Notes: generated from the sequence alone by a model not told the origin. A DNA stretch of 32,000 nt from Methanothermobacter thermautotrophicus str. Delta H (GCF_000008645.1 NC_000916.1:120001-152000); one strand, 5' to 3'. Counted from the first letter of the stretch, positions 4,482-8,158 are shown. Program-made: numbers and translations.

Positions 4482-4835
4482 TTGATACCGGGTATGGGAA
4501 TGAACCCCAAGCAGCTGAAACAGATGCAGAGGGCCATGAAGCAGATGGGAATGGATATGAAGGATCTTCGTGGCGTTGAAGAGGTTGTTATCAAACTCAA
4601 GAGGAAGGAGATCATAATAAAAAACCCCAAGGTCAATGTAATGGAGTTCATGGGACAGAAGACATACCAGGTGACTGGTAAGGCCCGTGAAAGGTCCCTT
4701 GAAGCTGAAATGGAGATACCCGAGGATGACATCGAACTGGTCATGAACCAGACCGGTGCAAGCAGGGAGGACGCCACAAGGGCCCTCCAGGAGACAGGGG
4801 GGGACCTTGCAGAGGCAATTATGAGGCTGAGCTGA
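4482..4835 (+). CDS. nac: Nascent polypeptide-associated complex protein (archaeal NAC, NAC domain + UBA)
   Basis: ORF starts with TTG immediately after the tgtA stop (alternative ATGs at 4494/4500). NAC domain 'VIKLKRKEIIIKNPKVNVMEFMGQKTYQVTG'. C-terminal UBA-like 'EDDIELVMNQTGASREDATRALQETGGDLAEAIMRL'. Confidence 0.9.
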   Translation: MIPGMGMNPKQLKQMQRAMKQMGMDMKDLRGVEEVVIKLKRKEIIIKNPKVNVMEFMGQKTYQVTGKARERSLEAEMEIPEDDIELVMNQTGASREDATRALQETGGDLAEAIMRLS

Positions 4836-5425
4836 TGGTACTGATAGCCCATATCTCGGACCTCCATGTGGGCGCACCCAATTTCAAGGAGGACATACTC
4901 CTTGAGGCCATAAGACAGATCAACAAACTCAAACCCGATGCAACTGTCATAACTGGGGACCTCACAGATAACGGCTACTACCTTGAATTCCTTCAGGCAG
5001 CAGAGTACCTCAGCGACCTTAAGGGACCCCACATATTTGTACCAGGAAACCATGATGCCAGGCACGTGGGCAATGAGACCTTCGAGGATGTTTTCAGGTA
5101 CCGCCGGGGAACCTTTGTGATGGACGGTCTCACCATCATAGGACTGGACAGCAGTGAACCCGACCTCGATTACGGGAAGATAGGGAGGTCCCAGCAGATC
5201 TGGATGGAGGATGAACTTGACAGGGCGTCCTCGAGGGGGCACATCCGGGTCATAGCTCTGCATCACCACATAATCCCCGTGCCCAAGACGGGACGTGAGA
5301 GGAACGTCCTTGCAGATGCAGGTGACATACTCCAGTCAATAATCAGTAAGGGCGCCGACCTGGTCATATCGGGCCACAAGCATGTTCCCCCACGTCTGGA
5401 GGCCTGGAGAACACCTTCTTTGTAA
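4835..5425 (+). CDS. Calcineurin-like metallophosphoesterase, apparently truncated by frameshift(s) just after the GHKH motif
   Basis: The ATG overlaps the nac stop (TGATG). Ordered motifs 'ISDLHVG', 'ITGDLTDNG', 'VPGNHD', 'ALHHH', 'ISGHKH'. The ORF ends 14 codons after GHKH, while family-like sequence continues in another frame (next feature). Confidence 0.8.
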   Translation: MVLIAHISDLHVGAPNFKEDILLEAIRQINKLKPDATVITGDLTDNGYYLEFLQAAEYLSDLKGPHIFVPGNHDARHVGNETFEDVFRYRRGTFVMDGLTIIGLDSSEPDLDYGKIGRSQQIWMEDELDRASSRGHIRVIALHHHIIPVPKTGRERNVLADAGDILQSIISKGADLVISGHKHVPPRLEAWRTPSL

Positions 5426-5568
5426 CTGCCGGGACGGTCTCATCCCTCAAACTGAGGGGTAAAGATATTAACTCATATAATACATATTACATTGATGAGG
5501 ATTCCATGAGAATAGTTCTCAATCAGGTGCAGGGAGAGAGCATTGAACTGGCATCCTGCAGCCTGTAA
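5404..5568 (+). pseudogene. Out-of-frame 3' continuation of the metallophosphoesterase (LENTFFVTAGTVSSLKLRGKDINSYNTYYIDEDSMRIVLNQVQGESIELASCSL*)
   Basis: This frame is open from 5404 to TAA 5566-5568. It ends 13 nt before the RBS of the next gene, filling an otherwise unexplained 165-nt gap. 'HVWR' is encoded in the third frame at 5391-5402. Confidence 0.6.
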
Positions 5569-5590
5569 AATATCAGCTAAAGGTGGTTAC

Positions 5591-6616
5591 TTGAGGGTAA
5601 TTATAGATGCATCGAACGTGGCCCATTCAAGGAAGAACGATGAGGAGAAGCCATGCATAGAGAACATACTGTCAGCGGCAGAGGAACTTGAGAAACTTGG
5701 CTACGAACCTGTTATAATCGCCGATGCATCCCTGCGACATGAGATAGATGATAAGGAGCAGTTCAGGAAGCTCCTTGAGGAGGGTAAATTCCAGCAGGTC
5801 CCCTCAGGTACCAGTGCCGACCACTTCATACTGAAGATGGCTGAGGAGGAGGATGCCAAGATACTCTCAAATGATGTTTTCAGGGACTACAAGGACGAAT
5901 TCCAGGATATAAACAGCAGGAGAATACCCTACACCTTCAGGGAGGATAAGATTCTGATAGGGACCTCCGGGAAACCAAAGAAGGTCAAGAATATACTTCA
6001 GAAGATATGCAATGAGGCCCTCAGGGAATTTGAGAGGAAGAGGATCGACGCATATAAGGTTAAAAGGGGCAAGAAACTCAGCGGTATAGCCATAGCAAAG
6101 GAGGCAATAGACAGAATAAGCAGGAGTCAGGAGGAGGGTCTCGAACCCAGACTTGAGGGCATATTCATGAAGCTACCCCTCTTCGAAAGGTTCATGAGCA
6201 TGGTTGAGGAGGTTGAGAGGACCAGCAACTACATAATATTCGTCCTTGTTCATCCAAAGGATTACCGTGATGCTGTGAAGTACGCCGGGAACATCGCAGT
6301 CACCGTCGGCGACAGGCTGAAACTGGAACACGCCCCCCTGGTGGCTGTCAGGAATGATCTCTTCCTCAAACCAGGCACCTTTGAGCTCAACATAATGTAC
6401 TCGGAGGATGTCATGGAGGAGGCCCCCTACAATGTTAACATAACCATAAATGATCATGATTACAGCTTCGTTAAGAAGAACTCAAGGAACATAGCGAGCA
6501 CCCTCGCGGCAAGGATAGGTTCATGGAGATTCCCCATAGTGTCTGTTAAACCAAGCATGCTCCTTGAGAAGCCAGGGGAGTTTGAGGTAGTCCTGGAGAA
6601 GGGAGGCAATGATTGA
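5591..6616 (+). CDS. NYN / Zc3h12a-like (PIN-like) ribonuclease domain protein with an unassigned ~200-aa C-terminal region
   Basis: TTG 5591 is preceded by AGGTGG (5581-5586). The ORF-track start at 5543 is also TTG but lacks an RBS and would overlap the phosphoesterase tail. N-terminal 'VIIDASNVAH', 'PVIIADASLRHEI', 'SADHFILKMA', 'ILSNDVFRDY' follow the NYN-domain residue order. Confidence 0.65.
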   Translation: MRVIIDASNVAHSRKNDEEKPCIENILSAAEELEKLGYEPVIIADASLRHEIDDKEQFRKLLEEGKFQQVPSGTSADHFILKMAEEEDAKILSNDVFRDYKDEFQDINSRRIPYTFREDKILIGTSGKPKKVKNILQKICNEALREFERKRIDAYKVKRGKKLSGIAIAKEAIDRISRSQEEGLEPRLEGIFMKLPLFERFMSMVEEVERTSNYIIFVLVHPKDYRDAVKYAGNIAVTVGDRLKLEHAPLVAVRNDLFLKPGTFELNIMYSEDVMEEAPYNVNITINDHDYSFVKKNSRNIASTLAARIGSWRFPIVSVKPSMLLEKPGEFEVVLEKGGND

Positions 6617-7821
6617 TGGTCATGGATTATCTGCTGCGGAAGATACTGGGTTTCTTCCTGGGATACAGGGTCCTCAGCATAGGGACCAGGTACATGCCCA
6701 CCAACAGTACAGAGCGCGAATACGTGGAAATGCTAAACTACACCAGAACAATGCTCATAGAGATTGAAAGGGCCCATATAAACACCAGCAACATATTCGA
6801 TAACCTCACAAGGGAGCTGGGGACAGAAAACATACCAGGAAACAGGAAGTTCATTGAAATCAAACCCGCTGATGAGGAGGTCGACGAATACGCCCTCCTG
6901 AGTAACATAATAATGGGAAGTGACCGCTACCTCTACATCGAGATATTCAACGGCGGCCGGATAGTGGATGAATTCGTGGATATCATCGAGAATGAAAATG
7001 GAAAGATAATCGAGAAGAGCTCAAGTGAGGTGCTTGCCAGGTTCCTCTCCAAGAATGACGCCATAAGGGTTGCTATAAAAATTATAGGCGCTGGAAGCAG
7101 GAGAGGGATAAATGTGAGGGCCGCGGCGGGCATGACAGGCGCTGCAGCCATTGAAAGGGCCATAAACCTCAACAGGGAGATAGGGGAGGTCCCGGGTGTC
7201 GGGTTCACAAAGCTTGGGGGTGAATTTGCCATAATATTCACAGGTGAATTTGAAACCCCCACCGGAGCGCCGTCCTACCGTGACAACTACCTCTTCACCG
7301 ACATGATCGACTCCACAGCATTCATAGAGAGGTATGGCCGTGACAGCCTCGTTGAGATAATGAATGACATAAAGGCCTACATGGAGAACGACTGCAAGGG
7401 GAAGATTGAGGGTTACCGTGAGGGTGGAGACGACCTCATAGCCAACTTCCCAACCAAGGACATGGCCCTCAGGGCCGGTATAGATTCTGCATGGCATGCA
7501 ATGGATAACGGCGCAAATATAAGGGTCGGGATTGGCCGCACAAGGAGGGAGGCCGGTGAGAGGGCCCAGCTGGCCGATGAGATAATGCTCTGGAACCCCA
7601 CATCCATCATGGTATTCGATGTTGCAGATGGCCTCTACGGGTACTTCATACCATCACCCTTCACACGGTCAGTCATAGATTTCTTCATGAACAGGAAGTC
7701 TGTGGCCTTCCTCGTGTTTATCTTTGTCTTCGTTGCAACCTTCCTCGGGTGGAACATGGGTCACTGGGAGTTTGGCCTCGTCGCAATCCTGCTTGCTGTT
7801 ATCTATGGGGCCACGGCATGA
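6616..7821 (+). CDS. Membrane-anchored protein with a class III nucleotidyl cyclase / GGDEF-like palm domain (GGDD motif), preceded by a degenerate copy; two C-terminal TM helices
   Basis: ATG 6616 overlaps the upstream TGA (TGATG) and is preceded by GGGAGG (6601-6606). Motifs 'YLFTDMIDSTAF', 'YREGGDDLIANF', 'IRVGIGRT' occur in the order and spacing of cyclase/GGDEF palms. Hydrophobic C-terminus 'VAFLVFIFVFVATFLGW' and 'FGLVAILLAVIYGA'. Confidence 0.55.
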   Translation: MVMDYLLRKILGFFLGYRVLSIGTRYMPTNSTEREYVEMLNYTRTMLIEIERAHINTSNIFDNLTRELGTENIPGNRKFIEIKPADEEVDEYALLSNIIMGSDRYLYIEIFNGGRIVDEFVDIIENENGKIIEKSSSEVLARFLSKNDAIRVAIKIIGAGSRRGINVRAAAGMTGAAAIERAINLNREIGEVPGVGFTKLGGEFAIIFTGEFETPTGAPSYRDNYLFTDMIDSTAFIERYGRDSLVEIMNDIKAYMENDCKGKIEGYREGGDDLIANFPTKDMALRAGIDSAWHAMDNGANIRVGIGRTRREAGERAQLADEIMLWNPTSIMVFDVADGLYGYFIPSPFTRSVIDFFMNRKSVAFLVFIFVFVATFLGWNMGHWEFGLVAILLAVIYGATA

Positions 7822-7870: not shown

Positions 7871-8158
7871 ATGAGACCTGAAACCGAGGCTAAAATCATT
7901 GTTAGCTTCCTGATTTCCCTTATAGCCTTTGGGTGCGGGTCAGGCCTGGGCATTGCAATCGGTCTTTCCGGCGGAGACATCACATCTGTTGATATTAATA
8001 ATACATCGTCCACTGATAATGTCCAGCTGACCCCCAGCAGCACCAACCACCTTCCCCTTAACGGTATAAAGGAGCAGGGAAGGGAGGTAGCTGAGAACGG
8101 CAATGGGGAAGTCAACGTTGTTAACAACCAGGGGTCCTCCAACAACACCACCTACTGA
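7871..8158 (+). CDS. Small membrane-anchored hypothetical protein with an Asn/Ser/Thr-rich tail
   Basis: ATG is preceded by AAGGGGA (7858-7864). One TM segment 'IIVSFLISLIAFGCGSGLGIAIGL'. The tail carries N-x-S/T sequons (NNTS, NNTT). No homology recognised. Confidence 0.45.
   Translation: MRPETEAKIIVSFLISLIAFGCGSGLGIAIGLSGGDITSVDINNTSSTDNVQLTPSSTNHLPLNGIKEQGREVAENGNGEVNVVNNQGSSNNTTY

Follow-up and report, generated by a model that had tools for sequence, protein, structure and literature searches.

An NYN-type RNase and a tandem nucleotide-cyclase-like palm protein encoded side by side in Methanobacteriales: a candidate housekeeping nucleotide-signal module

Cyclic AMP (cAMP) occurs in archaea and was measured in Methanothermobacter thermautotrophicus in 1986, and according to a 2023 review the archaeal proteins for its synthesis, degradation and sensing all await characterisation (PMC10249747). 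Lupo et al. (2025, mSystems), who looked for genes that only pseudomurein-containing archaea possess, listed two neighbouring families as the syntenic 'cluster D': OG0001213 (NYN), which includes WP_048060764.1, and OG0001214 ('Nucleotide cyclase'), which includes WP_048060765.1 (PMC11915815). Here we analyse this pair in a 32,000-nucleotide (nt) stretch of the M. thermautotrophicus str. Delta H genome (NC_000916.1:120001-152000, hereafter the window), where an initial annotation had singled it out as a possible signal generator with an RNase effector. Both window proteins are identical to the two M. thermautotrophicus accessions, and the truncated open reading frame (ORF) upstream of them is AAB84684.1; the names MTH178 (the truncated frame), MTH179 (gene 1, the NYN protein) and MTH180 (gene 2, the cyclase-like protein) therefore follow from the accession order.

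The cyclase label of OG0001214 stems only from its Methanopyrus member (Gene3D 3.30.70.1230, SSF55073), the Methanopyrus member of OG0001213 carries no NYN annotation in the published tables, and the supplementary tables give no homologue of OG0001214 in other Euryarchaeota; cluster D as a whole was judged probably unrelated to pseudomurein synthesis (PMC11915815). For the M. kandleri orthologue of gene 2, the name 'Predicted diverged member of adenylate cyclase 3 family' is of long standing, and a literature search by gene name for MTH179 and MTH180 returned nothing relevant. The description of cluster D does not include the tandem palm, the absence of NYN from Methanopyrus or the adjacent phosphodiesterase-like gene. 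The sighting of the pair and the fold label were thus already known; the analysis of the architecture and of the partner domain appears to be new. Our reading, which we hold tentatively and at slightly less than an even chance, is that in pseudomurein-walled methanogens MTH179 and MTH180 act together as a housekeeping module in which a nucleotide signal would control an RNase, with catalysis, product and coupling all putative.

The placement of MTH180 comes from profile and structure comparisons; no Pfam or NCBIfam family matched the protein. A family-profile search of PDB sequences returned class III cyclases only, namely Rv1900c (E 0.0075, amino acids (aa) 219-309) and Ma1120, with both matches falling within aa 219-311. 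In the profile alignment D229 and D272 lie on the two metal-binding Asp of Rv1900c, and the RVGIG motif lies on its RIGIH strand. An AlphaFold model built from 21 orthologues (predicted local distance difference test (pLDDT) 84.8, predicted template-modelling score (pTM) 0.76) was compared with solved structures using Foldseek. The best 50 matches (E 1.5e-6 to 8e-4, probability 1.00) were class III cyclases and cyclase-fold relatives with one low-probability exception at rank 23, and they include the adenylyl cyclase (AC) AC9, which ranked first, soluble AC, photoactivated AC, Ma1120, Rv1900c, Cya2 and GTP cyclohydrolase III. Template-modelling scores were 0.5-0.58 against the single-domain cyclases Ma1120 and Rv1900c. 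The region that the initial annotation had likened to cyclase, GGDEF or Cas10-type palms (aa ~224-335) is thus given a cyclase fold by both methods.

Because the top-scoring Foldseek matches were two-domain cyclases, MTH180 was examined for an internal repeat. Alignment of aa 103-213 with aa 223-350 by hhalign gave a probability of 97% and an E-value of 1e-10, and in the model both halves show one and the same order of secondary-structure elements; the negative control, the C-terminal domain of gene 1, aligned with neither of them (probability <1%). MTH180 is an internal duplication, consisting of a degenerate palm (palm-N) followed by a catalytic-looking palm (palm-C). The single palm implied at the outset thus holds as far as the cyclase fold of palm-C is concerned and gives way to a tandem double palm for the protein as a whole. 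Judging from the duplication and the pTM of 0.76, the two palms most likely pack head-to-tail as a pseudo-heterodimer.

The landmarks of palm-C are the FTDMIDST motif with D229 (7300-7302), GGDD at residues 270-273 (7423-7434), RVGIG at residues 303-307, R310 and E315. Residue conservation was assessed in 81 species-level genomes including Methanopyrus, and D229, G270, G271, D272, D273, R310 and E315 are invariant in all 81. The Asp residues that had been proposed as mutants under the numbers D230, D273 and D274, counted from a TTG at 6613, are D229, D272 and D273 when counted from the ATG. In palm-N, E109 and E138 occupy the would-be metal Asp positions and the 'ERA' helix motif is retained; E138, R151, E180 and R181 are invariant in the same 81 genomes, and E109 is found in 80 of them. 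The invariance of D229 and GGDD extends to Methanopyrus, where overall identity is ~26-28%. Such invariance at ~26% overall identity argues, on sequence grounds, for retained catalysis.

For gene 1, the N-terminal half matches the Zc3h12a-like NYN family PF11977 with an E-value of 7.7e-33 (113.8 bits against a cut-off of 23), and the match spans profile positions 4-153 of 154. Its PDB sequence matches are ZC3H12A/B/C and KHNYN. The AlphaFold model has a pLDDT of ~85-91 within this domain, and Foldseek aligns it with ZC3H12B/C/A at E 1.5e-8 to 4e-7 and 27-31% identity; it superposes on ZC3H12A-C with a root-mean-square deviation (rmsd) of ~3 A across ~140 columns. The active site of MCPIP1 has been listed as D141, D225, D226, D244 and D248 (PMC5499597). 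Candidate catalytic residues of the archaeal domain are D6, N9, D77, D95 and D99; the positions D6, N9, D77, D95 and D/E99 correspond to MCPIP1 D141, N144, D226, D244 and D248. The first four are kept in every complete gene 1 orthologue and position 99 is either D or E, while the counterpart of MCPIP1 D225 is Ala76, so that four of the five active-site Asp positions are kept. By these sequence criteria the N-terminal half of gene 1 is a genuine Zc3h12a/NYN RNase domain, predicted to have Mg2+-dependent endoribonuclease activity, and the initial identification, made from motif order, is borne out. Gene 1 shares its Pfam family and fold with MCPIP1/Regnase-1 (ZC3H12A), KHNYN and N4BP1; however, it has neither the CCCH zinc finger nor the KH domain, and, unlike these eukaryotic NYN RNases, its NYN domain is fused to a clade-specific domain of ~210 aa that pairs with a cyclase-like protein.

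This C-terminal domain carries the conserved motifs PLVxVRNDL, SRNIAST.A.R and FPxVxVK, and across the Methanobacteriales loci it is better conserved than the NYN half. Nothing credible came from searching it against Pfam, against the PDB by profile or against PADLOC, and a profile search for distant relatives found solely Methanobacteriales NYN fusions among the 120 matches listed. AlphaFold pLDDT over the domain is <50, from a low-diversity alignment of 20 sequences.

The gene pair has a narrow distribution. Approximately 427 orthologue clusters of gene 1 were found, all in Methanobacteriales, and 872 of gene 2. Among 1.84 billion representatives at 50% identity, gene 2 is represented by one cluster, some fragments and one distant full-length relative (P0251), which is a Methanopyrus protein; no full-length homologue was found among these representatives outside Methanobacteriales and Methanopyrales, in agreement with Table S2 of Lupo et al. 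(PMC11915815). Pairing was surveyed in 80 Methanobacteriales genomes or loci. Gene 1 lies directly 5' of gene 2 in every locus whose contig reaches upstream, and both NYN and the C-terminal domain were detected there in 74 of the 80. The pair is single-copy, 55-95% identical between genera, and fixed within one housekeeping neighbourhood, the block of archaeosine tRNA-guanine transglycosylase (aTGT), NAC, metallophosphoesterase, NYN, cyclase and argJ being syntenic throughout Methanobacteriales. In Methanopyrus the surroundings are wholly different: one flank carries aspartate kinase, the opposite flank a ThiC-like gene and an RNA ligase. There, a gene for a 238-aa protein lies 1 nt upstream of the gene 2 homologue. 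This protein has no NYN domain, and its homology to gene 1 is confined to the C-terminal domain (32% identity, E 7e-28).

Because Methanopyrus keeps the C-terminal domain and the cyclase-like protein adjacent without NYN, it is these two that form the conserved couple, and the RNase is an addition in Methanobacteriales. The pairing of NYN and cyclase proposed in the initial annotation is therefore co-conserved in Methanobacteriales and does not extend to Methanopyrus, whose partner holds the C-terminal domain only. The two genes might instead have separate functions and be together only as members of an operon in a syntenic region, which would fit the conservation of the whole aTGT-to-argJ block, given that order-level synteny says little, and the 50-190 nt that separate the genes in several genera. 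We consider such independence decidedly unlikely, as the Methanopyrus homologues adjoin (1 nt) despite wholly different surroundings and the two families have an identical narrow phyletic range.

The junction of the two genes in the window was read directly as TGATG at 6614-6618, the gene 1 stop overlapping the gene 2 start. The same overlap is seen in locus L001 and several other loci; it is not universal, intergenic gaps of 0 to ~190 nt being found in other Methanobacteriales. The overlap on which translational coupling had been suggested is thus present here and not in every locus. Gene 1 starts with the TTG at 5591, with AGGTGG at 5581-5586 shortly 5' of it, and its translation reads M/L-RVIIDASNVAH...SADHFILKMA...ILSNDVFRDY. 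Orthologues are 340-342 aa long and open with M[KR]VI[IV]DASNVAH; because their lengths and N-termini agree with the 5591 start, it is favoured over a longer ORF from 5543. All the sequence features that had first drawn attention to the locus, namely the gene 1 motifs, the junction with its GGGAGG, and FTDMIDST, GGDD and RVGIG in gene 2, were recovered at the same positions. Given the PF11977 score and palm motifs that are invariant in 81 of 81 genomes, chance does not account for them. The three points on which the initial idea turned were also checked: the fold, the conservation of the Asp residues in orthologues, and the co-conservation of the two genes, with gene 1 upstream wherever the contig reaches and the Methanopyrus pair adjacent. 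None of them spoke against it, and a function of the pair as 'signal generator plus RNase effector' is what we continue to infer.

Among characterised nucleotide enzymes, the class III two-domain cyclases (mammalian membrane AC with its C1 and C2 domains, and soluble AC10) have the palm fold in common with gene 2. In both, an F-x-D-x-x-x-S-T strand and loop supplies the first metal Asp, a G-D hairpin the second, and an R-[IV]-G-I strand is present. As in AC C1/C2 and AC10, the palm occurs as tandem copies in one chain, both Asp are kept in only one copy, and the protein is membrane-associated. However, gene 2 has no PF00211 match, it lacks the dimerisation arm that connects strand 4 with helix 4, its invariant GGDD is foreign to class III, and the Asn/Arg transition-state residues and the base-specifying residues were not identified; R316 and R181 of the 'ERA' motifs are possible counterparts of the transition-state Arg. 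Its anchor is a C-terminal hairpin, in contrast to the 6+6 transmembrane helices of mammalian membrane AC.

GGDEF diguanylate cyclases resemble gene 2 in their compact palm without an arm and in the GG-acid-acid hairpin, and the helix after the fourth strand (ERAQLADEI) recalls their 'ADxALYxAK' helix. The motif here is GGDDL rather than GG[DE]EF, strand 1 is FTDMIDST with no DxDxFK strand, and GGDEF enzymes are single-domain homodimers, whereas gene 2 is a tandem repeat. Membership in the GGDEF family was rejected, with no PF00990 match and no GGDEF structure among the Foldseek best 50, which leaves a likeness in motifs. In sequence, MTH180 looks like a hybrid, in which FTDMIDST strand 1 and RVGIG are class III-like, and GGDD, the missing arm and the ERAQLADEI helix are more GGDEF/Cas10-like. 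Because of these mixed features it is placed in the nucleotide-cyclase palm superfamily, nearest to class III, with no proven membership in a curated family.

At its C-terminus MTH180 has the two hydrophobic helices that had been noted at first sight: aa ~361-380 form a strongly hydrophobic helix (Kyte-Doolittle up to 2.26), and the second, aa 385-400, is short. The loop of this hairpin is too short for an external sensor. Lupo et al. report two predicted transmembrane segments for WP_048060765.1 and one to two across orthologues (PMC11915815). At the opposite end, a CARF domain was considered and rejected: PADLOC CARF3 matched the window protein (E 6e-4), yet across 21 orthologues it gave a match in just one, and the match was put down to chance.

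An anchor lacking an external sensor domain would also suit a membrane RNA-processing complex in which MTH180 is a non-catalytic palm scaffold that tethers and regulates the NYN RNase and binds nucleotide or RNA, with no messenger involved. RNase Y and RNase E are likewise membrane-bound. The tight coupling of the two genes, the failure of curated cyclase hidden Markov models (HMMs) to match gene 2, and the kinship of its palm with nucleic-acid-binding polymerase palms, including weak matches to RNA-dependent RNA polymerases and reverse transcriptases in a viral structure library, are compatible with such a scaffold. We nevertheless regard it as quite unlikely, since the metal-binding D229 and the whole GGDD motif stay invariant at ~26% overall identity and Methanopyrus retains the pair with no RNase to tether.

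A further comparison is with GTP cyclohydrolase III (ArfA, MJ0145, PDB 2qv6), a methanogen enzyme that, like gene 2, consists of two cyclase-like halves. It differs in being soluble, with ~250 residues in the solved chain, and in not being paired with an RNase. Its presence among the Foldseek matches (E 1.2e-4, 272 columns) suggests that MTH180 could be a metabolic enzyme of a pathway of the pseudomurein clade, either GTP cyclohydrolase III-like or a nucleotidyl transferase activating a cell-wall precursor, with the gene 1 C-terminal domain as a second subunit and the NYN fusion secondary. The phyletic range coincides exactly with that of the pseudomurein-containing archaea (PMC11915815), MTH180 is membrane-tethered, and the Methanopyrus pair does without the RNase. 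This alternative is nonetheless unlikely in our estimation. The global superposition on 2qv6 is poor (template-modelling score 0.31-0.33, rmsd ~14 A), and the palm is better fitted by single-domain class III cyclases; no Pfam or NCBIfam model for GTP cyclohydrolase III matched gene 2. A biosynthetic role would not readily account for the active-looking RNase to which the partner is fused in all Methanobacteriales, Lupo et al. judged the cluster probably unrelated to pseudomurein synthesis, and the two orders share ancestry, so that the coincidence with pseudomurein may be phylogeny only.

The initial annotation had drawn an analogy with type III CRISPR and CBASS, in which a nucleotide-synthesising domain is paired with an effector nuclease. 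Cas10 and mCpol (Panoptes) do share the GGDD motif, which is invariant in gene 2 in 81 of 81 genomes, and, like Cas10, gene 2 has two palms with GGDD in the second only and a nuclease/effector gene adjoining. The palm could accordingly be imagined to make an alarm or decoy signal, with NYN as abortive-infection nuclease, in a system of the type III CRISPR, CBASS, Pycsar or Panoptes/mCpol kind. Weak PADLOC PycC matches (E 0.014-0.034) occur in 2 of 21 orthologues, and constitutive 'inverse' signalling is known for mCpol. However, Cas10/mCpol membership was rejected, as no Pfam or PADLOC model matched and no such structure was among the Foldseek best 50, which leaves a resemblance at the level of the motif. 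In contrast to these systems, the pair is accompanied by no cas genes, robust CARF domain or HD domain, and it belongs to the core genome and is universal in the clade rather than patchy or mobile. Both orders have it, and it was present in each Methanobacteriales locus that was inspected and in all five of the Lupo et al. genomes; it is single-copy, and in Methanobacteriales it sits between the same housekeeping genes.

In the window, the GC content of the pair equals that of the remaining sequence, no cas, CARF or SAVED genes lie near it, and the neighbours (aTGT, NAC, metallophosphoesterase, ArgJ, ArgB and isopropylmalate/isocitrate dehydrogenase) are housekeeping genes; the core-like setting described initially was thus correct. 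No relatives of the pair were found in phage or plasmid collections or among viral structure predictions. With a core location, no robust PADLOC match and no phage or plasmid kin, the defence analogy is not supported, and anti-virus signalling seems very improbable; the housekeeping alternative that had been offered beside it is the better reading.

Under the reading we favour, a housekeeping nucleotide-signal module, MTH180 would be a cytoplasmic enzyme held at the membrane through its C-terminal helix hairpin. Its palms would form a pseudo-heterodimer like that of mammalian adenylyl cyclase C1/C2, soluble AC or Cas10, giving one complete two-Asp metal site (D229 and D272/D273) and one degenerate pocket. 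The enzyme would convert a nucleoside triphosphate into a nucleotide second messenger, with a 3',5'-cyclic nucleoside monophosphate (cNMP) such as cAMP as the simplest candidate; a dinucleotide or oligonucleotide product is an alternative, given the likeness of GGDD to the motifs of GGDEF and Cas10 enzymes. The MTH179 C-terminal domain is the ancestral partner of MTH180 and would act as a regulatory subunit of the cyclase or as receptor of its product. In Methanobacteriales this partner has gained an N-terminal NYN domain with an apparently intact active site, so that the output in that order would be regulated RNA cleavage. MTH178, the upstream metallophosphoesterase, may remove the signal. 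The best reading of the role is housekeeping regulation and not anti-virus defence.

Several observations weigh against this proposal. The class III dimerisation arm, a beta hairpin, is absent, strand 302-307 directly preceding helix 310-322 in the model. Class III cyclases also have an Asn...Arg transition-state pair on helix 4, and gene 2 shows no Asn that aligns with it. PF00211 (class III CHD) gave no match at E up to 10 in any of 21 gene 2 orthologues, and the Pfam GGDEF and mCpol models did not match gene 2 either. No recognisable nucleotide-binding fold was found in the MTH179 C-terminal domain by Pfam, PDB-profile or PADLOC searches, with a model of pLDDT <50. Because the entire block is syntenic, adjacency of the two genes inside Methanobacteriales is weak evidence of a common function, and what ties MTH178 to the pair is likewise only synteny. 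Since Methanopyrus lacks NYN, RNA cleavage is not the core output.

The coordinates of the pair, its domains and the two flanking genes discussed below are collected in Table 1.

Table 1. Features of the MTH179-MTH180 locus, in window coordinates
Feature	Position	Strand	Extent and basis
Gene 1, MTH179 (WP_048060764.1)	5591..6616	+	341 aa; ORF and translation
Zc3h12a-like NYN (PIN-like) endoribonuclease domain, predicted	5594..6001	+	aa 2-137; Pfam PF11977, PDB matches, Foldseek
Gene 1 C-terminal domain	5981..6613	+	aa ~131-341 (~210 aa); homology to Methanopyrus 238-aa protein
Gene 1/gene 2 junction	6601..6618	+	GGGAGG 6601-6606; TGA 6614-6616; ATG 6616-6618
Gene 2, MTH180 (WP_048060765.1)	6616..7821	+	401 aa counted from ATG
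Gene 2 N-terminal region	6616..6915	+	aa 1-100; amphipathic helix, then small beta-alpha-beta-alpha-beta-alpha domain (model secondary structure)
Palm-N, degenerate palm	6922..7254	+	aa 103-213; hhalign against palm-C, parallel secondary structure
Palm-C, catalytic-looking nucleotide-cyclase palm	7282..7656	+	aa 223-347; PDB profile, Foldseek, invariant residues
C-terminal hydrophobic helix hairpin	7696..7815	+	aa 361-380 and 385-400; model helices, hydropathy
MTH178, Icc/CpdA/Rv0805-like metallophosphoesterase	4835..5568	+	Pfam Metallophos E 3e-22
Small conserved membrane protein between gene 2 and argJ	7871..8158	+	95 aa; ORF

Among solved structures, the intact 245-aa orthologue of MTH178 comes closest to the cyclic-nucleotide phosphodiesterases Rv0805 and Icc (E 4e-12); NCBIfam CpdA and SpdA matches are below threshold, and several sources label the protein as CpdA or Icc-related. 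A metallophosphoesterase gene lies upstream of the pair in 72 of the 80 Methanobacteriales loci, as part of the syntenic block. It is possible, from these sequence relationships, that MTH178 is the phosphodiesterase for the signal of the module, its membership in the module being uncertain. The reading frame is broken near 5385-5412, where two extra bases within ~27 nt are seen in comparison with a close Methanothermobacter genome, and the truncated product of 196 aa is the strain Delta H protein AAB84684.1. The protein has 243-245 aa in other strains and in another M. thermautotrophicus assembly (1,751,429 nt); the break probably stems from a mistake made when the genome was originally sequenced, and not from decay into a pseudogene. 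A bolder extension of the proposal, which we think doubtful as a whole, is that MTH178, MTH179 and MTH180 are a complete ancestral cNMP cassette, in which MTH180 would be the synthase behind the cAMP measured in 1986, MTH178 the phosphodiesterase, and the MTH179 C-terminal domain a new receptor switching the NYN RNase.

In the small protein encoded downstream of gene 2, an N-terminal transmembrane helix (MRPETEAKIIVSFLISLIAFGCGSGLGIAIGL) is followed by a tail rich in Ser, Thr and Asn. Neither Pfam nor NCBIfam gave a match; the N-terminus recurs at this position in other genera, with a similar one in L001 and L009, and tblastn detected the protein in 16 loci. At the window start, a gene for a PAS-HisKA_2-HATPase histidine kinase occupies 55-990, with no adjacent response regulator among the genes scanned.

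A few loci depart from the common pattern. In Methanopyrus (L081, 9356-11732) the gene 2 homologue overlaps the start of the ThiC-like radical-SAM gene by 4 nt, and the RNA ligase gene comes next. The RNA ligase could be a meaningful or a chance neighbour of a module that in the sister order includes an RNase. P0276 (251 aa, L082 128-883) combines a weak vWA-like N-terminus with the C-terminal ~65 residues of gene 2 (ANGLYAYYIPSDFTR and the transmembrane hairpin). The idea that this tail ('ADGxYxYxIPSxFTR' plus the transmembrane segment) is a mobile module was rejected, as L082, a metagenome contig at 2.7x coverage, places the P0276 gene at gene 2's usual site upstream of argJ; a rearranged orthologue or an assembly chimera is more likely. 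In P0258 (447 aa), a segment with 44% identity to gene 2 aa 47-139 is set in otherwise unrelated sequence; the protein may be a degenerate paralogue or a chimera. The typical Methanobacteriaceae block also occurs on two contigs binned as 'Methanomicrobiales archaeon' (L026) and 'Candidatus Bipolaricaulota bacterium' (L040), which are probably mis-binned.

Should MTH180 prove to be a metabolic or an inactive protein, what is left is a lineage-specific operon already present in a literature list. The module is confined to Methanobacteriales and Methanopyrales, including Methanobrevibacter of the human gut, which makes it a clade-specific target, and M. thermautotrophicus is now genetically tractable. 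The MTH179 C-terminal domain, a conserved partner of the cyclase-like protein that matches nothing known, is the part likeliest to be new biology. The locus is a concrete candidate for the making, degrading and sensing of cAMP in archaea; if the full cassette were real, Archaea would have their first described set of synthase, degrader and receptor for cNMP signalling. The pair itself could show a nucleotide signal wired to RNA cleavage outside defence systems.

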